64,000 bases of DNA from Vicinamibacteria bacterium (lineage in GTDB: Bacteria > Acidobacteriota > Vicinamibacteria > Marinacidobacterales > Marinacidobacteraceae): NCBI GenBank assembly GCA_964291235.2, contig OZ219816.1:224001-288000 (forward strand), given 5' to 3'. Of this stretch, positions 44,573 through 56,032 are shown in pieces (position 1 is the first letter of the stretch; each line of letters begins with the position of its first letter). The translations under genes were made by a program, and so were the position numbers. The notes below the pieces were generated by a model. It was given only the letters and a program-made list of their open reading frames with translations, was not told the DNA's origin and searched no databases.

Positions 44573-46639
44573 CTACTCGGGCTCTCCGAGGTTCACCGGC
44601 TCGGGATCCACGAGCTTGACCGCCCACAGACCCGAGTTCATGTCGCTGAGGTAGATGTGGCCCTTGTAGGGCTGCGGTCCCCAGACCATCGGCGCGTTGG
44701 GAACCCGGCTCTCCGGGTCGAAGGGACGGAACATCGCGATCTCGCGGCCCTGCCGGTAGAGATCGCCCCGCAGCTCGCCGGAGATGTCCACCACCCGCAG
44801 GCCGCCGTTGTAGTAGCCGATGTAGAGGATGTCGTCCTCGACCCAGAGATTGTGGGTTCCGGCCTCGGGTACCTGGTAGCGGGCCACCTCGCGGGCGTTT
44901 TCCCATTCGTCCCACTCGAAGATGTGGATCCAGCCCGCCGCGCGTCCCGGGGTCCGCTCCGCGCGCATGGTCTGGTGCGGGAACGCCTCGTCGCCGCCGA
45001 TCATCAGGAACTTGCCGGTGGACTGGCTCCGGTAGGGATACGCGGCGTGGTTCCAGCCGCTCGGATACGGGGTCTGGCCCAACAGCACCGGGTTGTTCGG
45101 GGCGCCGCCCTTGCCGCCGCCGCCCACGTCCACGGCCACCACCCCGTCGTTCCAGTTGGACGAGTAGGCGATGCCTTCGTGGACCCACACGTCGTGGATC
45201 GAGTGGCCGGGAGTGTCCATCTCGAAGCGTCCGACCCGGTAGGGATTCTCCGGATCCTCGGCGTTCAGGATGTCGTAGCGCCGTCCCGCCGAAAGCGCAT
45301 AGACATGGTCTTCCGCGATGAAGACGTTGTGGACCCCGCCGGTGAGCTGATCGTCGTAGCGGGCGATCACCTCAATCCCGTTCTGCGGGTCGCTGACGTC
45401 GAGGATCACCAGACCGTTCTTGCGGTTCGAGGCGCCCTCGCGGCTGATCACGCAGAACATCCCGTCCTCCGAGACCTTGACGTCGTTCACCGTCCGGGCG
45501 TCCACCCGCACGGTGTCGATCAGCGTGATCGCGGACGGGTCGGTGACGTCCCAGAAGTAAGCGTGGCCGTCGGCGCTGTGAGTGCCGGTCACGGCGTAGT
45601 CCCGGCCGTCAACGCCTTCCCAGACCCACAGGTCCGAGGTGCGGCGGTCGCGGACGGGGCCCTGACCGACGATCTGGACGTCCTTGCGGACCTTCCTGGC
45701 CACCACCGCCACCGTAGCGCTCGCCGATTCGGTGAATCCGTCGGCGATCACGGTGTGGGTGCCGGAACGCTCGGCCACGAACGCGCCCGCCTCATCCACC
45801 TGGCCGATGGCCCCGGGGGCCACGATCCCGTCGGTGGGCACTCCGAAAGTCGCGAACTGCACCGGGTAGTCCGGCACCTCGTTCCCGGAGGCGTCCGTCA
45901 CCTTGGCCTCGAAGAACACCACGTCTCCGGTCCGCACCGCGTCCTCCGGCGTCCCGCTCAGGGTGATCGACGCCACCGGGTTGGCGAGCACCTCGATCGC
46001 GGTGTCGCTCGACGCCTCCTCGGCGGAGACCGTGACGGTCGTCGCGCCTGCGCTCATCAGGGTGATCACGCCGAGCGCGTCCACGCTGGCTACCGAGGGA
46101 TCGGCGGAACTCCACCCCACTTCCACGTCGTTTCGGACGGCGCCCGAAATGTCGGTGACCAGGGAGCGCAGGCCGATTTCGGTTCCCGTGTAGAGATGGC
46201 CCGGGAGATTGGAAATTTCCACCGTCGCCACCGGAGGGTTCGGGATGGTCACCGGGATCTCCACCATGACCGCCGGCTCGGCTCGCCGGCTGGTGTCCTC
46301 GGGGTCCTTCGGCACCATGGCGATCAGGGTGTGTTCGCCGGGCCGGTAGGCCTCGACGATGCCCGCCGGGTTCACGCCCACGGAGCGCCGGCGGCGCGAA
46401 AAGAACACCACCGTGCGGTCCATCGGGTTGCCCTCGCCGTCCCGGACCTCGGACTGGAGCGTCAGCTGGTCGCCGACCTCGAGTTCGACTTCGGCAGGCG
46501 TGATGATGAGCTCGGCCGGCTGCGGACCGGCCTCCGCGTCTTCCTCTTCCTGGGCGAGCGCGAGTCCGGGGACCAGCGCGAAGGCCAGACCGAGCGCGAT
46601 CAGGAGACGCGCCCGCGGGTTCGAATTTTTCAGGGTCAT
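44573..46639 (-). CDS. Ig-like + LVIVD-repeat protein, paralogue 3
   Basis: Collinear with paralogues 1 and 2. Confidence 0.88.
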   Translation of the reverse strand: MTLKNSNPRARLLIALGLAFALVPGLALAQEEEDAEAGPQPAELIITPAEVELEVGDQLTLQSEVRDGEGNPMDRTVVFFSRRRRSVGVNPAGIVEAYRPGEHTLIAMVPKDPEDTSRRAEPAVMVEIPVTIPNPPVATVEISNLPGHLYTGTEIGLRSLVTDISGAVRNDVEVGWSSADPSVASVDALGVITLMSAGATTVTVSAEEASSDTAIEVLANPVASITLSGTPEDAVRTGDVVFFEAKVTDASGNEVPDYPVQFATFGVPTDGIVAPGAIGQVDEAGAFVAERSGTHTVIADGFTESASATVAVVARKVRKDVQIVGQGPVRDRRTSDLWVWEGVDGRDYAVTGTHSADGHAYFWDVTDPSAITLIDTVRVDARTVNDVKVSEDGMFCVISREGASNRKNGLVILDVSDPQNGIEVIARYDDQLTGGVHNVFIAEDHVYALSAGRRYDILNAEDPENPYRVGRFEMDTPGHSIHDVWVHEGIAYSSNWNDGVVAVDVGGGGKGGAPNNPVLLGQTPYPSGWNHAAYPYRSQSTGKFLMIGGDEAFPHQTMRAERTPGRAAGWIHIFEWDEWENAREVARYQVPEAGTHNLWVEDDILYIGYYNGGLRVVDISGELRGDLYRQGREIAMFRPFDPESRVPNAPMVWGPQPYKGHIYLSDMNSGLWAVKLVDPEPVNLGEPE

Positions 46640-46662
46640 GTTCCCTCCCTGACCGGCGAAGC

Positions 46663-47796
46663 TCACGGCTCGCCCTTCCAGTAAATGATGCCGCCGGCCT
46701 GCTTGCCGACGTCGATCTCGGAGACGCGCTGGGCGGCGGCGATGTCATAGACCTCGACCGTGCCCGGCTCGCCGCCCACGCCTTCCAGAGTGACGATCGC
46801 GTAACGGTCGTCGTCGGACACCACCACACCGTGGGGTACCCGCCGGGTGGTTTCCGGGGCGGCGATCAGCTCGCCGCTCTCCAGGTCCCAGAATCCGACC
46901 TTCTTGCCGGACTTGTAGGTGGCGACCAGCACGCCGCCGTCCGAAGTGATCTCCAGGTTGTAGGGGTTCTGGCCGGGTCCGGCGTCGAACCGCCGGGAGA
47001 CCTCCCACGCCTCGAGATCCACCTCGTAGATGGCGCTGTCGCCGTTCCCGGCCACGTACACCTTCCCGGCGGGCGACGGCTTGGTCGCCCAGGTCGGCTT
47101 GACCACCGGCGCCCGCATTTCGTCCATATTGGCCATGTCGCCATGGTCCATACCGGCGTGGGGGTCGGTCCCGAGATAGAGCCGCCGCGCGATTTCGAAG
47201 CGCATGGCGTCCACCTCGACCAGCTCGTCATCCATCATGTTCACCGAGTAGAGCCGGTCGCCCTTGGCGTTCATCCGCGCTCCGTGCGGCATGACGCCGG
47301 TGTCGATGGTGGCCACCTCGATCATGGTGCCGGTCTCCACCACCGAGATGGTGCTCGGGACGTGGTCGCCGTGGAGGTTGAAGTTCACGACGTAGAGCAG
47401 CCCGGTGCTCGGCGAGATGTCCATGGTGGCCGGAAACATGCCTAGAGTGGCGTCCCCGAGCCATTCGTTGGTTCCGGTCTCGTACTTGTGCACCGCGCCG
47501 AAGGGCATGCCGTGGGCGATGGACAAGAACCAGTAGCGGCCGTCGGACGAGATATTGATCCCGTGCGGGCCCTCGGTTTCCGTCGGGAAGCTGCCCACCG
47601 CGATCTCATCGATCTCCTCGAACCCGCTCGGTCCGTAGCGGAGCAGGTGGACGGTGTCGTCCGACTCCGCACAGACATAGACAAAGTAGTTGCGTCTCGG
47701 CGGCTCCGGGTCCTCGGCGGCGGCCGCGAGGGGCAGCAGGCCGAGAATCAGCGCCAGGGCGGCTGCGAAGCGGAGTCGGGAGGGGCTGGATGTCAG
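46663..47796 (-). CDS. YncE/YVTN-type beta-propeller protein, secreted
   Basis: EGPHG, VMPHG and RVPHG blades; signal peptide. Apparent CTG start 7 nt after GAGGAG. Confidence 0.8.
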   Translation of the reverse strand: MTSSPSRLRFAAALALILGLLPLAAAAEDPEPPRRNYFVYVCAESDDTVHLLRYGPSGFEEIDEIAVGSFPTETEGPHGINISSDGRYWFLSIAHGMPFGAVHKYETGTNEWLGDATLGMFPATMDISPSTGLLYVVNFNLHGDHVPSTISVVETGTMIEVATIDTGVMPHGARMNAKGDRLYSVNMMDDELVEVDAMRFEIARRLYLGTDPHAGMDHGDMANMDEMRAPVVKPTWATKPSPAGKVYVAGNGDSAIYEVDLEAWEVSRRFDAGPGQNPYNLEITSDGGVLVATYKSGKKVGFWDLESGELIAAPETTRRVPHGVVVSDDDRYAIVTLEGVGGEPGTVEVYDIAAAQRVSEIDVGKQAGGIIYWKGEP

Positions 47797-47807
47797 CTGG
47801 GTTCTCC

Positions 47808-49865
47808 TCAATTCGGTTCTCCCATGTTGCGCGGCGTCTCGGGATCCACGAGCTTCACGGCCCACAGCCCCGAGTTGAAGTCGGTGAAGAAGATGGTGCC
47901 CTTGAAGGGCTGGGGACCCCACACGAAGGGAGCGTTCCGCTTGTAGCCGTCGGGATCGGCAGGCTCGAAGAAGGTGATCTCCCGGCCCTGCTGGTAGAGG
48001 TCGCCGCGCAGATCACCGGAGACGTCCACCACCCGGAGGCCGCCGTTGTAGTAGCCGACGTAGAGGATGTCGTCCTCCACCCACAGGTTGTGGCTGCCGG
48101 CCTCGGGCACCTGGTAGCGGGCGACTTCCCGGCCTTCGCCTCCGTCTTCGTCCCACTCGGCGATGTGGATCCAGCCGGCGGCCCGGTCGGGAAGCTTCCC
48201 GCCGGGATCGAAGCTCCAGGGGAAACTTTCATCCCCGGCGAACACCAGCATCTTGCCGGTGGACTGGCTCCGGTAGGGAAAGCCCGCGTGGTTCCAGCCG
48301 TTCGGGTACTTGAAGCTCCCGATCATCTTGGGATCGTTCGGAGCGCCGCCGAGGTCTCCCCCGCCGATGTCCACCGCGACCACACCGTCGGTCCAGTTCG
48401 AGGACCAGGCGATGCCGTCCTGAACCCAGACGTCGTGAATGCCGTGCCCCGGGGTGTCGAGCTCGAAACGTCCGACCCGGTAGGGATTCGCCGGATCCTC
48501 GGCGTTCAGGATGTCGTAACGCCGCCCGGCGGAGAGCGCCAGGATGTGGTTCTCGGCCACGAATGTGTTGTGGACGCCCCCGCTCATCTGGTCGTCGTAG
48601 CGCGCGATGATCTTCACGCCGTCCGTCGGGTTCTCGACATTGAGCACGACCAGCCCGTTCTTCCGGTTCGAGGCGCCTTCGCGGCTGATGACCGCGAACT
48701 TGCCGTCCGGAGAGACCTTGACGTCGTTCACCGTGCGGGCGTCCACCCGGACGGTATCCACCAGGTGGATGCTCGACGGATCGGTCACGTCCCAGAAATA
48801 GGCGTGCCCGTCGGCGCCCCAGGTTCCGGTGATCGCGTAGTCCCGGCCGTCAACGCCTTCCCAGACCCAAAGATCCGAGGTGTGGCGGTCACGGACCGGA
48901 CCGCGCCCGAGGATCTCCCAGTCCTTCTTGATGTTGCGGGAAGTGGCGCGGATCGTCTCGCGGGCCGTCAGGGAGCCCCCGGAAACCACCACGGTGTGGA
49001 GACCCGGACGCTCGGCCACGAAGGCGCCGTCCGGCTCCACGAAGGCCGCGGCTCCGGGCGCCACCAGGGTGTCGGGCGTGCGGGTCGAAACCGCGTATTG
49101 CAGCGGATAGTCGGGAACCTCGTTGCCGCTCGCGTCGAGCGCGCGGGCCTCGAACCAGACCACGTCCCCGGTCCGCACTTCCCCCTCGCTCGCCGAGACG
49201 TCGAGACGCACCGCCGGGTTGGCGCTCACTGAGATCGCGGCTTCGCCGCTCACCGATTCGGCACTCGCCGAAATCGTCGCGGAACCCTCGCCGCGGAGCA
49301 TGAGCACCCCGTGTTCGCTGACCGTCGCCACCGAGGAGTCGCTCGAGGACCACGCGAAGTCGGGCTTCCGCTCGGCGCCGGAGGCATCCGTGGCCATGGC
49401 GGTTACCCGCAGCGAGGTGCCCTCGTAGAGGCTCGCCGGAAGGGCGGCGATCTCGACACTCGCGAGGGCCGGCCACGGCACGCTCACCGGAACCTCCACC
49501 ATGAGCGCCGCCTCGGCGCGCCGGTCCAGCGCCTCCGGATTCTGCGGCACCATGACGATCAGGGTCTGGTCCCCCGGCCGGTGGGCTTCCACCATTCCCG
49601 CGGGGTTCACCCCGACGTAGCGCCGGGCGCGCGAGAAGAAGACCACCCCGCGCTCGAGCGTGTTTCCGTCGGCATCCTTGACGGTCGCGGTGAGCTGGGC
49701 GCTGCTGCCGACCTCGAGGGTCAGTTCCGGCGGATCCACGACGAGCTCCGCCGGTTCCTGCGCCGCCGCAGAGCCGGCGAGCAGGACCCCGGCGCACGTC
49801 AGCGCACCCAGGAACAAGAGCCGGTCAGAACGCCTGCCGGCGAAGGAATGAATCATCTTTAGCAT
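47808..49865 (-). CDS. Ig-like + LVIVD-repeat protein, paralogue 4 (most diverged)
   Basis: Same architecture and motifs as paralogues 1-3. Confidence 0.88.
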   Translation of the reverse strand: MLKMIHSFAGRRSDRLLFLGALTCAGVLLAGSAAAQEPAELVVDPPELTLEVGSSAQLTATVKDADGNTLERGVVFFSRARRYVGVNPAGMVEAHRPGDQTLIVMVPQNPEALDRRAEAALMVEVPVSVPWPALASVEIAALPASLYEGTSLRVTAMATDASGAERKPDFAWSSSDSSVATVSEHGVLMLRGEGSATISASAESVSGEAAISVSANPAVRLDVSASEGEVRTGDVVWFEARALDASGNEVPDYPLQYAVSTRTPDTLVAPGAAAFVEPDGAFVAERPGLHTVVVSGGSLTARETIRATSRNIKKDWEILGRGPVRDRHTSDLWVWEGVDGRDYAITGTWGADGHAYFWDVTDPSSIHLVDTVRVDARTVNDVKVSPDGKFAVISREGASNRKNGLVVLNVENPTDGVKIIARYDDQMSGGVHNTFVAENHILALSAGRRYDILNAEDPANPYRVGRFELDTPGHGIHDVWVQDGIAWSSNWTDGVVAVDIGGGDLGGAPNDPKMIGSFKYPNGWNHAGFPYRSQSTGKMLVFAGDESFPWSFDPGGKLPDRAAGWIHIAEWDEDGGEGREVARYQVPEAGSHNLWVEDDILYVGYYNGGLRVVDVSGDLRGDLYQQGREITFFEPADPDGYKRNAPFVWGPQPFKGTIFFTDFNSGLWAVKLVDPETPRNMGEPN

Positions 49866-50081
49866 GGCCGTGGAGAACCCTCCTGCACTAGCCCCAGTGG
49901 GCAACAGGCGATTGTATCGGCTCCGCAGCAGCGAAGCCGCCTACCGTCGGCGGTGAAGAGGCGCGTACCGCCCGAAACACCGGCGTCCGGTCGGAACAGC
50001 GGCGCGCAGCACCGTCGTCGGCGGTGGACTGCCTCGCACTTTCATGGCGCACCCGCTCCGCAAGCGCCGGACAGACCGCCC

Positions 50082-52385
50082 TCAGGCAAGCTGGCGATAA
50101 CGATCGAGCGCGATTGCTTTCTGTTCACCTCGAAGACACCGCGTAACCATCTTGAAGGCGCTCTCCAAACCCCGCGCATACGCGAGATCCATGGTCGCTT
50201 CGCCGGACGCCTCAATCACTCTGCGAGCCGGAATCTTGTAGTTGCTGGCGAGCTCGACCAGTTCGTGAATGCCGTTTCGATCCGACAGGACCACTGGCGC
50301 GCAGCACTCGATGGCGCGACCCATCATGAGCGTGGCCAGACGGCCCGACTCGGTCGGCAGCCGATCCCAGTGGTTCCAAATCACGGGGAAGCAGTCCATC
50401 TCCCGCGCGCGATCCAGAATCCGGAAGCATGCCGCAGCGTCCAGAATCTGATCGTCGCGGACGATCCCGACCAGAAGCGCGCCGTGTTCCGTCTCAACGC
50501 GGCAATCGCACCGAATCGGCTGCCAGCCCGAGCGTCCACGAACAGCCGCGTGCGCACCTGCCCATGCAACCGGGACGGGCTTGCGGGCCGGTCGCGTTCG
50601 AGGCTTCCTGGGCTTGGCAGGCAGCGGAATCCTCGCCCAGTCGAGAGGTTGGTCCAACGCTCTCAGATCGAGCTCAACCACCAGGACACGGTCAGCCCTG
50701 GGGCATTCCGACAAGGGCACCATTTCGGATTGACCTGCCAGTCTTGCCGGGACCTCCTTGCCGTCCGGGGCGAAGGCGAAGGGATGTGTGCGGTGCCGGC
50801 TCATGTCGTCGTGTAGCGTGCAGAGCGCATAGAACCGATTCTCGACTGCCCGCAGCCGAAGGACGGCCGACCACTTGACCTCGGTGACGTTGTCGTAACT
50901 CGGATTCACCCAGATACGGGCGCCTCGGCTCGCCAGAAAACGAGGGAGTAGGCCCAGGTAGTGGTCGTGGCAGATCGTCGCTCCAACCGTTAGGCCGCTC
51001 AGTTCCAGGGTAGGGAGCATGACGTCCGGCGCCCAGTCCTCCCTCTCGAAAGCGGTGACTTCCGCAGTCGAGTGCTTCATGTACACCCGCGCCTCAGATC
51101 CGTCAGGATCGAAGCGAAGGAGGATCTGCGAGGCGCGGCCCGCCGCATCGAACCTCCGGTCCAGCGCGCCGACCAGTAGCGGAGCGTCGAGCGCCGCGGC
51201 GAGCTTCGTGAGCGACTCTCGGCGCTGGGCGTCCGATGAACGGATGTACGCCTCCGGGAAGAGCACGAAATCCACGCTTTCGCCAGCGAAGTCCGCGGCG
51301 GTGGGGACACCGGGCTCCTGGGCGCCGCCCCCGGTCGGTGGTACGCCCGCGGATGTCTTCCGGTGCGTCTCCGGAAAGACGAGAGCCGCGCGCACCACGG
51401 AAGTCGTTGGACCGACGCGGGTGTGGGTTCTTCCCCCGCTCGGATTCGGTGAGAGGGCCGCCGCCGCCGCGAAGCGCCGCTGATCCTCATCGCTGTCCGG
51501 GTCCAACGAGCACCAGACTAGGTCACCGGCGTGCAACCTCACCGTGGGTCGCATTCCGTGAAGTGGCGGGACCAGATCGCGCAGGGTGTCGTACCAAGCC
51601 CGCTGCTCATCGCGGAACGGAGGGTCCCGGTCCCGGGCGTCGTATCGCTCGCAGAGCGAGACCCAGCGAGCCCGGGAAAACCCTAGCGGCGGTCGGTCCG
51701 GGTACGCAGCAAGCGCCAGTTTTCGCGGCTGAGTGAAGTGCTGGCTTTCATCGAACTCCACCAGAAAACCCGGGTCCGGAACCCAGAAGTCACTCGGCGC
51801 CAGCAGTGAGGTCCTCACGAAGTCCGAAACGGAGAATCCTCGGTTCGCTTCCAGTGCGGCCGCGATCCTCTGCAGGCTGGGATCAAGAGGGGTTTCCTGG
51901 TAGGCGGAAAGCCGCGCCGGCCAGCGAAACCGGCGGTTCGGCCGGCATTCTCCAAAACGGGTCTCCAGCATCTCGCGCACCCGCTTCTTGCATTCGGCAC
52001 ACCGCTCCGAATGACGTCGGGTGCGCGCCCCGAGCACCGGCTTGGACGAGAAGGCGGACCGGCGCGGGTTCGGGGAGGCAGCGGAATGCGTCGCCGATTT
52101 CCGTGGTGGCGCGCAAGCCTGAGCGCTTCCACCACAACCACACTTGACGATCAGGAAGCCGCGACTCGCAAGAAAACGATTGGTCTCACGGCCGCCCGAA
52201 AAACCGCGCAGGTACTGCCCGAAGGCAACCTGATGCGCCAGCGCAATCGTGTACTTCGGAGGAAAGTGCACGTCACTGTCCAGCAGGCAGTAGCCACGGC
52301 TGCGCCTCCCAGCCCGAACGCCGTCGCGGCGGATGCGGCGGAGCGCTTCCCGAATCTGCGCCTCGGTGATGGAGGACGGAATCAC
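50082..52385 (-). CDS. Fusion of PPKY-type DNA-binding head, Vsr/DUF559-like nuclease and carbon-nitrogen hydrolase (nitrilase) domain
   Basis: FPPKYTIALA...FSGGRETN.FL..RGF; DFWVP..FLVEFDESQHF; FPE, YMKH, TICHD. GTG start shortly after the racemase stop. Confidence 0.75.
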   Translation of the reverse strand: MIPSSITEAQIREALRRIRRDGVRAGRRSRGYCLLDSDVHFPPKYTIALAHQVAFGQYLRGFSGGRETNRFLASRGFLIVKCGCGGSAQACAPPRKSATHSAASPNPRRSAFSSKPVLGARTRRHSERCAECKKRVREMLETRFGECRPNRRFRWPARLSAYQETPLDPSLQRIAAALEANRGFSVSDFVRTSLLAPSDFWVPDPGFLVEFDESQHFTQPRKLALAAYPDRPPLGFSRARWVSLCERYDARDRDPPFRDEQRAWYDTLRDLVPPLHGMRPTVRLHAGDLVWCSLDPDSDEDQRRFAAAAALSPNPSGGRTHTRVGPTTSVVRAALVFPETHRKTSAGVPPTGGGAQEPGVPTAADFAGESVDFVLFPEAYIRSSDAQRRESLTKLAAALDAPLLVGALDRRFDAAGRASQILLRFDPDGSEARVYMKHSTAEVTAFEREDWAPDVMLPTLELSGLTVGATICHDHYLGLLPRFLASRGARIWVNPSYDNVTEVKWSAVLRLRAVENRFYALCTLHDDMSRHRTHPFAFAPDGKEVPARLAGQSEMVPLSECPRADRVLVVELDLRALDQPLDWARIPLPAKPRKPRTRPARKPVPVAWAGAHAAVRGRSGWQPIRCDCRVETEHGALLVGIVRDDQILDAAACFRILDRAREMDCFPVIWNHWDRLPTESGRLATLMMGRAIECCAPVVLSDRNGIHELVELASNYKIPARRVIEASGEATMDLAYARGLESAFKMVTRCLRGEQKAIALDRYRQLA

Positions 52386-52396
52386 GAACTGCGTTT

Positions 52397-53449
52397 CTAC
52401 CAGATGTCCCCGATCGTGAACCCCTCGGGGAAGGGATCGGACGGGTCCACCGAATACTGGGCCATCCCCGTGATCCAGGCGGTCCCGCTGATCGTCGGAA
52501 CCACCGCCGGGACCCCACCCACGGTGGTCTTCCGAATCAGGCGTCCCACGAACTCGGTCCCCACGGGACCGAAGTGATGGAAGTCCTCGCCGATCGCGAG
52601 CAGCCCGCGCGCGTGGAGCGCCGCCATGCGGGCCGAGGTGCCCGTCCCGCAGGGCGAGCGGTCGAGCGCCCCGGTCCAGGTCTCGGGACGGTCCCAGTCG
52701 AGATCGCCCACCGCGACCGAAACCGCGTTTGCGGCGGTCCGCGTCTCGGGATCGTAGGGCCCGGTGAGCTGCCCGATGCTGGCCTGGCGGATCTCGGAGT
52801 TCTCCGGGTGTACGGCCTCGAGTTGTTCGCGCGCGGCCTGCTTCACCATCGCGCCGACCCGCGCCAGCTCGCGCCCGTGCTCCGGGGCGATCCGGAGCCC
52901 GAAGCGGGCGGCGTCGGCGATCGCATAGAACATCCCGCCCCAGGAGACGTCCACCTCGACCTCCCCGAAGGTCGGCACCTCGATCTTCGCGCCCAGGTGG
53001 GCCGGGAAGGCCGGCACGTTCTCGAAGGTCACCCGGGTCACCTTGCCGCCCTCGACGCTGGCCTGCACCTGGATGAGGCCCGCGGGCGTCTCCAGCGTGA
53101 GTTCGGTCACCGGTTCGACGGCCCGAACCATCCCGGTCTCGATCAGGGCGGTCACCGTGCAGATCGTGTTCGTCCCCGACATCGGCGGGTACTCGGTCTG
53201 CTCCATGATCACGAAGCCGGCATCGGCGTCGGGATGCGTCGGGGGCAGCACCAGATTGCAGTTGGCCGCCGGGTATCCGCGGGGCTCCCGGAGCATGAGC
53301 TTGCGGAGTCCGTCGGCGTGGCGCTCCAGGTACTGCATCTTCCGGAACATGGTTTCGCCGGGTACGTCGAGGACGCCCCCGACGATCACCCGCCCGGGCT
53401 CGCCGGCGGCGTGCAGGTCCACCGCGTGGATGAGTCGCCCTGAGCGCAT
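52397..53449 (-). CDS. Proline racemase family protein
   Basis: HAAGEPGR, EPRG, PPMSGTN (Ser variant), DRSPCGTGTSA. Confidence 0.93.
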   Translation of the reverse strand: MRSGRLIHAVDLHAAGEPGRVIVGGVLDVPGETMFRKMQYLERHADGLRKLMLREPRGYPAANCNLVLPPTHPDADAGFVIMEQTEYPPMSGTNTICTVTALIETGMVRAVEPVTELTLETPAGLIQVQASVEGGKVTRVTFENVPAFPAHLGAKIEVPTFGEVEVDVSWGGMFYAIADAARFGLRIAPEHGRELARVGAMVKQAAREQLEAVHPENSEIRQASIGQLTGPYDPETRTAANAVSVAVGDLDWDRPETWTGALDRSPCGTGTSARMAALHARGLLAIGEDFHHFGPVGTEFVGRLIRKTTVGGVPAVVPTISGTAWITGMAQYSVDPSDPFPEGFTIGDIW

Positions 53450-53451
53450 CG

Positions 53452-55086
53452 TTATCTCCTTTGGACGTTTTGCCCCGGGAGGTCTTCCTCGACCACACGG
53501 AAGACGCCCGGCCCGTCCACCGGAACCAGTTGGTCGGCTCCCGTGGGCCAGCGCACCCTAACCGAGTCGGGCACTCCGGGGCCAAGCCCGATCCACACCT
53601 CGCGGGACCCGGACGACAGGTAGCTCGAACCGGCCGTCACCACGGAGCGTTGCGGGCGTCCGCTCCGCTCCACCACCACCTCGGCGCCGACGCCGTCGCG
53701 GTTGGACACCCGTCCGACCAACTGCAGCACTGCCCGGGGAGCCGGCTCGGCGCCGTTTCGGAGCAGCGCGGCACGGCCCCCCGAGCGCGAGACCACGAGA
53801 TCGAGCCGGCCGTCCGCATCGAAGTCGGCTGCCGCGAGACCCCGGCCGACCGCGGGCGCCCCTTCCAGCATCACCGGTTCGAACGAGCCATCCCGGTTGC
53901 GGAAGCACTCGTCTCGCTGGCGGTAGTCCGTGCCGGGATAGAGCAGGGGCGCATTGTCGAGAACGTGCCCGTTGGTGACACACAGGTCCGGCGACCCGTC
54001 GTTGTCGAGGTCCGCGAAGACGGCCCCGAAACCCAGCCAGCCGAGCGACGGGCGCCCCACCCCGGACAGGAAGGAAACGTCCCGGAACACGCCGTGCCGG
54101 TCCGCGACGTAGAGGTTGTTCGCCTCGCCCTGGAAGTTCGTGACGAACAGGTCGAGATCCCCGTCGGATTCGATGTCGGCAACCGCGATGCCCATCCCGG
54201 CGAGGGCGTTCCCGTCGCCGTCGTAGGCGAGCCCGGCGGGAAGTCCGCGTTCCCGAAAACGCAGTCCTCCCAGGTTCTCGAAGAGGAAATTGGGAACCGT
54301 GTCGTTCGCCACGTAGAGGTCGGGAAGCGCGTCACCGACCAGGTCGGCGGCGAGGACGCCGAGCCCCTTGCCCGTCAGGAGCGCCACCCCCGCCGCCTCG
54401 GAAACGTCGCGGAAAGAGCCGTCGCCGCGGTTCTCGTAGAGCAGGTCGGGCACCCCGGAGAAGGCGTCGGGGAGACAGTAGGAGCGGACCGCTTCGCCGG
54501 CGATCGTCCGCGCGCACACCGGGTTGTGCGACGGAGACCAGTCGAGGTAGTGGGTGATGAAGAGATCGAGATCCCCGTCGCCGTCGAGGTCCGAAAACGC
54601 GGCGCTCGCGGCCCAGCCGGCGGCGTTCAATCCGGCCTCCCGCCGCACGAACGTCCCGTCGCCCCGGTTCTCGTAGAGAAGATCGGCGCCCGCCCGGGTG
54701 ACCAGCAGGTCGGGGTCGCCGTCGTTGTCGTAGTCGGCGGCCACCGCTCCCATGCCGAATCCCTCCGCGGGAGGGAGGGTCCCGAACCCGGCGGGTTCGC
54801 TCACGTCCCCGAAACTTCCGTCGCCCCGGTTGCGGTACAGCGTGCCCGCCGGGCCCCGCGGCCGGCCCGTTCCCGGCACCTCGCCGCCCTGCACGAAGAA
54901 GAGGTCGGGCGCCCCGTCACCGTCGTAGTCCAGCACCGCGAGCCCCGAGCCCATCGTCTCCACCGGATGCCACTCACCCCGGGCGCCCCGCTGGTGCTGG
55001 AAGGAGATGCCGGCGGCCCCGGCCACGTCGGCGAGGCGGATCTGTGACCACGCCGGGGAGGCCGAAAGGAGGACCGCCAGGAGCAT
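53452..55086 (-). CDS. CRTAC1/ASPIC-UnbV FG-GAP repeat protein
   Basis: Repeated DYDGDG/DLDNDG motifs, GKGLG, SNRDGVGA, GSSYLS. Start 55086 or 55182. Confidence 0.92.
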   Translation of the reverse strand: MLLAVLLSASPAWSQIRLADVAGAAGISFQHQRGARGEWHPVETMGSGLAVLDYDGDGAPDLFFVQGGEVPGTGRPRGPAGTLYRNRGDGSFGDVSEPAGFGTLPPAEGFGMGAVAADYDNDGDPDLLVTRAGADLLYENRGDGTFVRREAGLNAAGWAASAAFSDLDGDGDLDLFITHYLDWSPSHNPVCARTIAGEAVRSYCLPDAFSGVPDLLYENRGDGSFRDVSEAAGVALLTGKGLGVLAADLVGDALPDLYVANDTVPNFLFENLGGLRFRERGLPAGLAYDGDGNALAGMGIAVADIESDGDLDLFVTNFQGEANNLYVADRHGVFRDVSFLSGVGRPSLGWLGFGAVFADLDNDGSPDLCVTNGHVLDNAPLLYPGTDYRQRDECFRNRDGSFEPVMLEGAPAVGRGLAAADFDADGRLDLVVSRSGGRAALLRNGAEPAPRAVLQLVGRVSNRDGVGAEVVVERSGRPQRSVVTAGSSYLSSGSREVWIGLGPGVPDSVRVRWPTGADQLVPVDGPGVFRVVEEDLPGQNVQRR

Positions 55087-55178: not shown

Positions 55179-55439
55179 TCATGAACGTGCCTGTTGGTCC
55201 GAGAAGAATCTCCCGCGCAACTCGCTTTCCCTGATGAAGCGGGATGCCTGCCGGAAGATGGCATGCAACGTACCAGCGGCAAGCTCCCGGTGTAATGGCA
55301 CGGTGAGAACCTGTCGCTCCCCCTCGGGCAGAACCCGGACAAGTCTGGCGTGACTGCCGCGGACCCTCGCCACCCGGAATCCGAAATCTCCCAGGATCTT
55401 CAGCACCTCCCGCGCGCTGAGGCGCCGGAGGCGGGGCAT
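55179..55439 (-). CDS. hicA: HicA family toxin
   Basis: GF...RVRGSH...TVPLH.EL..GTL.AI. Confidence 0.92.
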   Translation of the reverse strand: MPRLRRLSAREVLKILGDFGFRVARVRGSHARLVRVLPEGERQVLTVPLHRELAAGTLHAIFRQASRFIRESELRGRFFSDQQARS

Positions 55440-56032
55440 CAGGCCGGGAAGGCCATCGTTTCGTAACTGACGACCAGACGCGGTCTGGACGAAAGGCCGA
55501 GACGCCCGAGTTCGTCATCGTCAAGATGCAGCTCCAGCGCCTCCGAGAGATTCCTGAGGGTTTCGTCCAGCGTCCTTCCCTGGGTGACCACGGCCACCTC
55601 CAGGCATTCCGCGACGAACCAGGCGCCGCTCCTCACGATCACCGCATGAATCGAGGATCGCTCCGGGGCAAGGCCACCCCCGTAGGCGGCGGTCCGCTCC
55701 GCGGTGCGATCGGCCGCACCGGCCTCCCCGGCGGTGTACGGCGGGCGCGCCGGTTCGCGAAACGCATCTTCGATCCGGTAAATGCCCCGTCGCAGGCGCC
55801 GGAAGTACGGCCAGCGATGAGGATGATGCGCCGGAGCATTCACACAGCATCGGCTCGCCACGTGCGTCCGGACCGACCGCTCGTTCAGGTGCGGCAATGC
55901 CCGGACCAGGTCGCCAAGTCGAAAGGTCCCGTCTCCGGGCTGGGTGAGACGCCGCGCCGCCGTCAGCACCTCGGCATGGATGGCCCGGTGCTCTTCCGCT
56001 TTCGGAATGCGTGCCACGGAGATATTTTCCAC
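55439..56032 (-). CDS. hicB: HicB family antitoxin with an extra N-terminal domain
   Basis: C-terminal FVAECLEVAVVTQGRTLDETLRNLSEALELHL; N-terminal SVRTHVASRCCVNAP...GIYR. Confidence 0.85.
   Translation of the reverse strand: MENISVARIPKAEEHRAIHAEVLTAARRLTQPGDGTFRLGDLVRALPHLNERSVRTHVASRCCVNAPAHHPHRWPYFRRLRRGIYRIEDAFREPARPPYTAGEAGAADRTAERTAAYGGGLAPERSSIHAVIVRSGAWFVAECLEVAVVTQGRTLDETLRNLSEALELHLDDDELGRLGLSSRPRLVVSYETMAFPA

Follow-up and report, generated by a model that had tools for sequence, protein, structure and literature searches.

That nitrilase domains can be required effectors of anti-phage systems is a recent finding. In the reverse transcriptase (RT)-nitrilase protein DRT1, the nitrilase domain is required as the defence effector, and its substrate is described as unknown (PMC13275509). 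The RT-nitrilase UG5 likewise confers phage immunity, and its description gives the catalytic triad and the PADLOC context (PMC13436386). Another described system is ScoMcrA, the type IV phosphorothioate-dependent restriction endonuclease of Streptomyces coelicolor (PDB 5ZMM). The head of this enzyme, as its structure report describes, is a small and flexibly attached part without known function, and the readers of DNA modification are the SBD and SRA domains, not the head (PMC6224610). Here we describe a gene in a window of 64,000 nucleotides from a Vicinamibacteria bacterium (contig OZ219816.1, positions 224,001 to 288,000; the window is the whole stretch that was analysed, and positions are counted within it). 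The gene is real and intact. Its 767 residues begin with a small head of the restriction-enzyme type, followed by a nuclease-fold domain resembling Vsr and then by a nitrilase-type amidase that is complete.

On the analysis presented below, we tentatively read this protein as a conflict or defence enzyme, encoded by a single, horizontally mobile gene and probably directed against phages or mobile elements, in which a nuclease-fold module would be combined with a nitrilase effector. We place this reading somewhat short of an even chance. The use of a nitrilase in defence is already known from the RT-nitrilase proteins DRT1 and UG5, and it is the partner module that differs here. A search of the full-text literature, covering articles without their supplementary files, found no description of the architecture and returned the RT-nitrilase systems instead.

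A gene with a nuclease-fold domain and a nitrilase domain

The gene lies on the minus strand at 50082..52385, with a GTG start codon at 52385 and a stop codon at 50082–50084, and encodes 767 amino acids (aa) in one open reading frame (ORF); the coordinates in the preliminary description of this DNA are right. Upstream of the GTG, the frame stays open to 53585, that is, for another 400 codons (1167 aa in total). Because this extension overlaps the Pro_racemase gene (52397–53449) in a different frame, and because the N-termini of the homologues (MIP..) aligned exactly with the GTG, 52385 is the true start. The 1167-codon open frame across Pro_racemase (50082–53585, minus strand) is a high-GC artefact. 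Logan contigs from four runs, which represent three samples of one study and possibly include the window's own source, spanned positions 49700–52413 or more and showed 0 differences and 0 gaps relative to the window. A frameshift artefact can therefore not explain the single ORF. Every motif quoted in the preliminary description was found where it had been implied: PPKY at residues 42–45, FSGG at 62–65, HSERCAEC at 125–132 (the H..RC..C pattern), D199-x10-EFDESQH with the latter at 210–216, FPE at 376–378, YMKH at 435–438, ICHD at 471–474, LRAVEN at 511–516 and GRAIEC at 689–694. The public gene call for this copy (P0002) comprises only 629 aa and lacks the head domain, so that the architecture is easily overlooked by annotation pipelines; public annotation stops at "carbon-nitrogen hydrolase family protein" or "predicted amidohydrolase".

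The nitrilase-superfamily domain occupies residues 326–592 (50610..51410, minus strand). It matched the Pfam family CN_hydrolase (PF00795) at 46.9 bits against a gathering threshold of 23.2 (E value 2.9e-12, residues 370–524), a threshold that was also passed in 5/5 homologues scanned, and the alpha-beta-beta-alpha sandwich of the nitrilase fold was present. The complete Glu-Lys-Cys triad that had been proposed in FPE, YMKH and ICHD was confirmed: E378 (codon 51252–51254), K437 (51075–51077) and C472 (50970–50972), all on the minus strand, were invariant in 24/24 close members and in 20/20 diverse members. E447, the probable fourth residue of the centre, was present in 13 of the 20 diverse members and lay at most one residue from the Glu of the Nit2 FQE motif in a HMMER alignment. 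The closest solved relatives by sequence were Nit2 (2w1v, E value 5.9e-5) and yeast Nit3 (1f89), with identities of 17–22%. NCBIfam equivalog scores for the domain were far under their cut-offs, and a search for relatives among shorter proteins returned only fragments of the same family (79/79 matches). These two results place the nitrilase domain in a separate lineage without an assignable substrate.

Residues 123–310 (51456..52019, minus strand) form a Vsr-like PD-(D/E)xK domain, which includes the HSERCxxC motif, the D199-x10-EFDESQH motif and a helix with the sequence RDEQRAWYDTLRD. Its predicted structure showed a restriction-endonuclease-like core with a predicted local distance difference test score (pLDDT) of 96–99. 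Both the nuclease fold and the nitrilase fold named in the preliminary description were recovered. The putative nuclease active-site motif extends from D199 to H216 (DFWVPDPGFLVEFDESQH; codons at 51738..51791, minus strand), as assigned from its position and its invariance. D199, E210, D212, E213, Q215 and H216 were invariant in 73/73 aligned sequences at identities down to 31%, as was an Arg/Asp run in the helices after the motif, and this invariance held across both C-terminal types of the family described below. C129, C132, C245 and C292 were nearly invariant and may bind zinc. The Vsr and DUF559 models of Pfam gave no match at E ≤ 1. The only Pfam family to match the domain was DUF7255, below threshold (best score 22.9 bits against a cut-off of 27, in relatives). 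BFVD gave no match at E ≤ 0.001, and its weak rows (E > 0.001) were restriction, Vsr, DUF559 and homing-type nucleases; PHROGs gave no match for the protein itself.

The head comprises residues 1–88 (52122..52385, minus strand) and contains PPKY and FSGG. A profile of its relatives matched residues 4–96 of ScoMcrA by sequence (E value 1e-5), and homologues carry the precomputed family PF26345, named ScoMcrA_N, which places the domain in that family. The SBD, SRA and HNH domains of ScoMcrA were not found in Pfam, NCBIfam and PDB sequence searches with the whole protein, and no known reader domain (SRA, SBD, EVE or similar) was found in the protein or in 10/10 relatives with other N-termini. The N-terminal domain had been proposed to be of the McrA type and to read DNA; the match to ScoMcrA_N bears out the type, and the reader role stays hypothetical, the ScoMcrA head having no known function. 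The head is followed by a low-complexity linker at residues 89–122 (52020..52121, minus strand), variable in length and sequence. The linker is disordered, with a pLDDT of 46–49 and poorly conserved, indel-rich columns, and it has the highest ratio of nonsynonymous to synonymous substitution rates (dN/dS) of the gene, 0.56.

The conserved C-terminal domain, residues 596–767 (50085..50600, minus strand), always accompanies the nitrilase domain. It had a pLDDT of about 82–91 for most of its length and carries WNHW (670–673), GRAIECC (689–695) and K717, of which W670, N671, W673, R690, E693 and K717 were conserved in diverse members. The preliminary description had taken this region for a degenerate partial repeat of the nitrilase domain, on the strength of the echo between GRAIEC and LRAVEN, and this proposal failed in two sequence tests. 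In hhalign, residues 596–767 aligned to 326–592 with an E value of 0.11 over 22 unrelated columns, and with a hidden Markov model (HMM) of nitrilase residues 455–580, 24 real C-terminal domains scored at most 0.2 bits, compared with up to 9.4 bits among 2400 shuffles. Pfam found no family in the C-terminal domain alone. Its predicted secondary structure, beta-alpha-beta-alpha-4beta, follows the same order as nitrilase residues 465–573, an RA[VI]E echo links the two domains, and a language-model search with the C-terminal domain alone returned CN_hydrolase clusters only (sub-threshold, 0.87). The domain is possibly a degenerate nitrilase-like half without the catalytic Cys.

Family, distribution and insertion site

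Among 8000 scored candidates, 373 proteins matched at E ≤ 1e-3, and the 120 matches listed showed 54–100% identity over 81–100% of the query. Representative clusters numbered 1122 at E ≤ 1e-3; 214 of these matched at E ≤ 1e-30, and the family is therefore abundant. With one genome per species, at least 264 stretches encode a relative. Of these, 80 were kept as a locus set, in which 61 loci (L002–L062) are of the nitrilase type. An intact single ORF was found in 39 of the 61, and the remaining 22 were headless, split at a domain linker, broken or ended by a contig edge; some of the breaks may be long-read assembly errors. Headless or split forms were represented by L033, L037, L038, L052 and L053. 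In a Rhodospirillaceae metagenome-assembled genome (MAG), a 1.1-kb insert (L039, 11802–12778) interrupts the homologue between residues about 607 and 639; it encodes a 188-aa transposase-like ORF and a 138-aa helix-turn-helix (HTH)-like ORF and was read by eye as an insertion sequence (IS) element of the IS630 type. The fusion is conserved and its four-part architecture is common, recurring across phyla; a search for other proteins of this build had been proposed in the preliminary description.

The family is modular. The N-terminal module (residues 1–306, or 124–306 in headless forms) was joined to a different C-terminal region, 300–540 aa long, in 33 of 39 compared proteins (P0139, P0206 and 31 others), and the nitrilase domain with its C-terminal domain was also found alone or as a neighbouring ORF. 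The alternative region matched no Pfam family in 10/10 relatives and no PDB sequence. Comparison with the nitrilase domain by hhalign gave nothing in global mode and two weak collinear matches in local mode, which placed CxD on CHD (P = 0.008) and PGG on FPE (P = 0.027). From these matches there is a hint that the alternative region may have a nitrilase-like fold without the catalytic Glu.

Copies 51–61% identical to the gene were found in seven phyla, as assigned from MAG titles: Acidobacteriota, Nitrospirota, Gemmatimonadota, Latescibacterota, Pseudomonadota (Alpha- and Gammaproteobacteria), Thermodesulfobacteriota and Dadabacteria. An archaeal copy was 38% identical. In a tree of 40 rows, built in quick mode and with support from the Shimodaira-Hasegawa-like approximate likelihood ratio test (SH-aLRT) only, 38 rows formed one shallow clade, and cross-phylum transfer was seen in nestings on long contigs: L014 within Latescibacterota (SH-aLRT 98), L011 within Acidobacteriota (99) and L019 with Nitrospirota (97). 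A gene that retains this level of identity across seven phyla is also useful for following gene flow among uncultured marine MAG lineages. The names of the MAGs raised the possibility that the clade at 51–61% identity occurs in sponge symbionts only, which we do not claim; Palauibacterales are recorded as marine. Within the genus, the distribution was patchy. A full-length copy was present in 2 of 15 other genomes, some of the genomes surveyed being incomplete (G002, 77% identity; G008, 59%, at another locus), and in 0 of 45 genomes of other genera; head-only matches were found in three genomes.

The gene lies in a slot of variable content. The Pro_racemase gene upstream (52397..53449, minus strand; Pfam E value 3.6e-117) ends 11 nucleotides (nt) before the GTG and is a conserved flank outside the system, 94–95% identical in 5/5 same-genus genomes. 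Homology among same-genus genomes ended at the Pro_racemase stop codon (52397) and resumed at 49917. The variable segment between these points (49918..52396) is present in the window and in G002 (locus L002) and is replaced elsewhere. In G014 and G004, about 245–265 nt stand in place of the gene. In G009, the same slot between Pro_racemase and LVIVD genes (L091, 4571–5722) is occupied, on the opposite strand, by a gene for a STAND-like AAA_16 ATPase of 383 aa, which matches PHROG 6841 (E value 4e-11); in its behaviour, the site is a hotspot of variable content. At the empty site of G014 (L090, about 2200–2260), the 3' end of Pro_racemase with its stop codon is directly repeated over 52 nt (87% identity), some 135 nt downstream of the original. 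This duplicate may be the footprint of an insertion or excision at the junction. In three of the four runs, metagenome contigs ended or branched within 52397–52444, and one short contig entered unrelated sequence; these breaks imply that strain variants with different content after Pro_racemase occur in the same samples. The 48-nt Pro_racemase end (52397–52444) was not repeated elsewhere in the genome, and no convincing repeats flanking the insert were found within the window.

The G+C content at third codon positions (GC3) was 0.74 in the gene and 0.86–0.92 in its housekeeping neighbours. Compared with the syntenic orthologue L002, dN/dS was 0.23 overall and 0.15–0.25 in each of the four domains, against 0.05 and 0.15 in the two flanks. 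The synonymous rate (dS) of 0.57 was taken as equal to the 0.49–0.51 of the flanks. The gene is under purifying selection, yet evolves faster than its neighbours.

The genes around it in the window encode Pro_racemase, FG-GAP/ASPIC, LVIVD/Big_2 and beta-propeller proteins. No neighbour was conserved across loci, in agreement with the first account of a lone gene between unrelated neighbours: the largest neighbour cluster covered 7 of the 61 loci, all from one synteny group, and no conserved partner gene was found. The neighbour scan covered 150 ORFs at positions ±2 in 45 loci. Eight near-duplicate synteny loci (L018, L025, L028, L032, L033, L045, L053 and L054) had been removed beforehand, as had ORFs shorter than 90 aa and the final 23 of the 173 candidates. 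The commonest Pfam families were PDDEXK_1 (4), DDE_Tnp_1, Phage_integrase, DDE_3 and parts of UvrD-type helicases (3 each), and SIR2_2, SLFN_AlbA_2 and ResIII (2 each). PADLOC models matched ThsA (3), LmuA (3), RTasHel, PDC-S11, PbeA and Dsr1 (2 each) among the neighbour ORFs. For the association with defence islands, proposed as a check in the preliminary description, the signal was modest, with some defence and mobile neighbours and no PADLOC match for the protein itself. A scan for promoters and terminators gave nothing above shuffled sequences, and a search of sequencing runs listed no RNA run that contained the sequence.

Two further features of the window were observed. A HicA_toxin ORF (86 aa, E value 3e-14) follows immediately after an ORF of 197 aa with DUF7669 and DUF7387 (55179–56032, minus strand); the two are probably a HicAB-type toxin-antitoxin pair, and their GC3 of 0.74–0.75 is atypical, like that of the gene described here. 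At 44573–49904 (minus strand), two paralogous Big_2 ORFs of about 698 aa, with LVIVD in the first, flank a beta-propeller ORF. The Big_2 ORFs are 60–65% identical to each other's orthologues, and the arrangement is kept in same-genus genomes.

Candidate functions

If the protein is a conflict or defence enzyme, it may work through two modules. The first would consist of the flexibly tethered ScoMcrA-type head and the Vsr-like PD-(D/E)xK domain, which would bear a zinc ribbon and has an apparently intact acidic/His centre; this module would recognise, and probably nick or cut, a nucleic acid. The second, a nitrilase-fold amidase whose Glu-Lys-(Glu)-Cys centre is complete and which always comes with its own C-terminal domain, would hydrolyse a non-peptide C-N bond of some substrate through a thioester on C472. 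It would thereby supply a second effector, a chemical one, in the way of the nitrilase in DRT1. In such a division of labour, module 1 may sense or target while module 2 executes. The defence role, this division of labour and any substrate are inferred; the folds, the conserved catalytic residues, the modularity, the purifying selection, the solitary position of the gene, its patchy distribution, its transfer across phyla and its place in a variable slot are observed.

Several results weigh against a mobile defence enzyme. Phylum labels changed 10 times along the tree, where the minimum is 7 and shuffled labels changed 21.6 times on average. The labels are thus clustered, and transfers appear to have been few and followed by descent, not rampant. 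The plasmid collection contained no real copies (two matches were to the nitrilase only, at 17% coverage), phage records contained none, and 2.9 million viral contigs (IMG/VR) yielded only two distant copies. The defence and mobile signal among the neighbours was modest and consists of raw counts without a background rate, and the GajB/UvrD and PDDEXK_1/AddB rows among them are probably housekeeping AddAB. Around distant relatives (12 loci), the 63 flanking ORFs were mostly housekeeping genes (HisRS, SecA, SecY, UvrC and TrkH), with one BrxL. The neighbours in the window itself were ordinary, the sole nearby conflict-type genes being the HicA/HicB-like pair, 3 kb away, and 0 families of PADLOC-DB 2.0.0 matched the protein at E ≤ 1.

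The preliminary description had inferred a modification-dependent restriction system, in which the head reads modified DNA, the nitrilase hydrolyses a nitrile or amide on phage bases (7-cyano- or 7-amido-7-deazaguanine, or Mom-type acetamido-adenine) and the Vsr-like domain cuts. The head is indeed common with that of a type IV enzyme, the nuclease and nitrilase centres appear intact in the sequence, and nitrilase-superfamily chemistry is well established to suit nitriles and amides. However, the head of ScoMcrA has no known function and is not the modification reader of that enzyme (PMC6224610), neither the protein nor the ten relatives with other N-termini has an SRA, SBD, EVE or similar reader, and the head is dispensable, since headless and split forms exist (the five loci named above). 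The nearest structures, moreover, belong to Nit-branch amidases that act on small metabolites. No link to deazaguanine genes turned up, in an analysis that included no test aimed at one, and nothing in it connects the nitrilase with 7-deazaguanine, Mom or any other modified base; we consider this explanation very unlikely. In a broader proposal, the proteins that combine a Vsr-like nuclease fold with a nitrilase-like fold, with or without the head, in bacteria and archaea, could be a superfamily that forms a new class of single-gene immune enzymes, in which recognition of a nucleic acid would gate a nitrilase that chemically edits a nitrile or amide group of a nucleotide, cofactor or DNA base. 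Conversion of NAD+ to deamido-NAD, or of 7-cyano- or 7-amido-7-deazaguanine, would be examples. We regard this as speculative and unlikely; if true, it would represent a form of immune chemistry that has yet to be described, and nitrilase effectors could be approached more simply than through DRT1. An enzyme of DNA or RNA maintenance, in which Vsr-type nicking would be paired with an amidase acting on amide-linked adducts of nucleic acid, or on lesions of the carbamoyl, ureido or formamido type, so as to remove them, would fit the distant relatives found among housekeeping genes, including UvrC. The patchy distribution (2/15 same-genus genomes), the variable slot, the atypical GC3, the cross-phylum transfer and the frequent disruption are unlike a core repair function, and no conserved repair partner was found, which makes a maintenance role quite unlikely.

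The precision of the insertion, right after the Pro_racemase stop codon, bears on a further possibility, that of a selfish mobile gene whose Vsr-like, homing-type endonuclease drives its own insertion at intergenic sites, with the nitrilase module as cargo or as a stabilising toxin. The empty site with its 52-nt duplicate of the gene end, the contig breaks at the junction between Pro_racemase and the gene, the solitary position of the gene without a recombinase, and the match of one relative to the PHROG "homing endonuclease" (E value 2.5e-4) would all agree with it. Between the genome of the window (G000) and G002, however, dS equals that of the flanks, which points to stable inheritance at the site since the two split, and purifying selection on all four domains is unusual for the cargo of a homing gene. 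There are no flanking repeats in the window, and the unrelated gene in the slot of G009 suggests that the slot, not the gene, may be the mobile feature. We judge a homing gene to be distinctly improbable. The gene could also encode an ordinary metabolic amidase with an unknown substrate, its nuclease-like N-module being catalytically idle and serving in regulation, localisation or oligomerisation. Public annotation, which goes no further than a carbon-nitrogen hydrolase or amidohydrolase, the metabolic or secreted proteins encoded next to it in the window, and a GTG placed 11 nt after Pro_racemase on the same strand, which makes co-transcription possible, are in line with this. Against it, the putative nuclease centre is invariant in 73 sequences down to 31% identity and in both C-terminal types, which argues for catalysis or specific binding, and linkage to Pro_racemase is not a constant of the family, as G014 and G004 carry Pro_racemase but lack the gene and other loci have other neighbours. 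We consider a purely metabolic role unlikely.

Comparison with known systems

ScoMcrA shares the head with the protein described here. The match is confined to residues 4–96 of the ScoMcrA chain, whereas its SBD, SRA and HNH domains were undetected in our protein, and the two differ in nuclease type, HNH in ScoMcrA and PD-(D/E)xK here. Among PD-(D/E)xK enzymes, the Vsr very-short-patch repair endonuclease, DUF559 and the I-Bth0305I subgroup come closest: an Asp, then an E-x-D strand, then a nearby His, an order which we take to resemble the DUF559/Vsr motif. Vsr has a zinc site, and the Cys cluster of our protein could likewise bind zinc. The extra conserved helix RDEQRAWYDTLRD and the fusion to other domains set our protein apart from these nucleases. 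The Nit1/Nit2/NitFhit branch has the same Glu-Lys-Cys centre as our nitrilase domain, but with an identity of just 17–22% and with equivalog scores far below the cut-offs.

In its overall plan, the protein resembles DRT1, of the class 3 UG-Abi RT-nitrilases, and also UG5-large, each being likewise one large polypeptide in which a nucleic-acid module precedes a C-terminal nitrilase with a full catalytic centre. The differences lie on both sides of the nitrilase. No RT domain was found in our protein by Pfam, NCBIfam or PADLOC, and no DRT model of PADLOC matched it; the head and the Vsr-like fold stand in its place. The nitrilase domain is then followed by an extra domain of 170 aa. Defence has been demonstrated for DRT1, whereas for our protein it is a candidate role that we infer. 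If defence is confirmed as its function, the protein would extend the range of effector chemistries known in prokaryotic immunity and would serve as a tractable system for finding the substrate of a nitrilase effector. The family would then offer the effector type of DRT1 in a simpler, RT-free form, as a single protein with a recognisable nuclease-fold partner.

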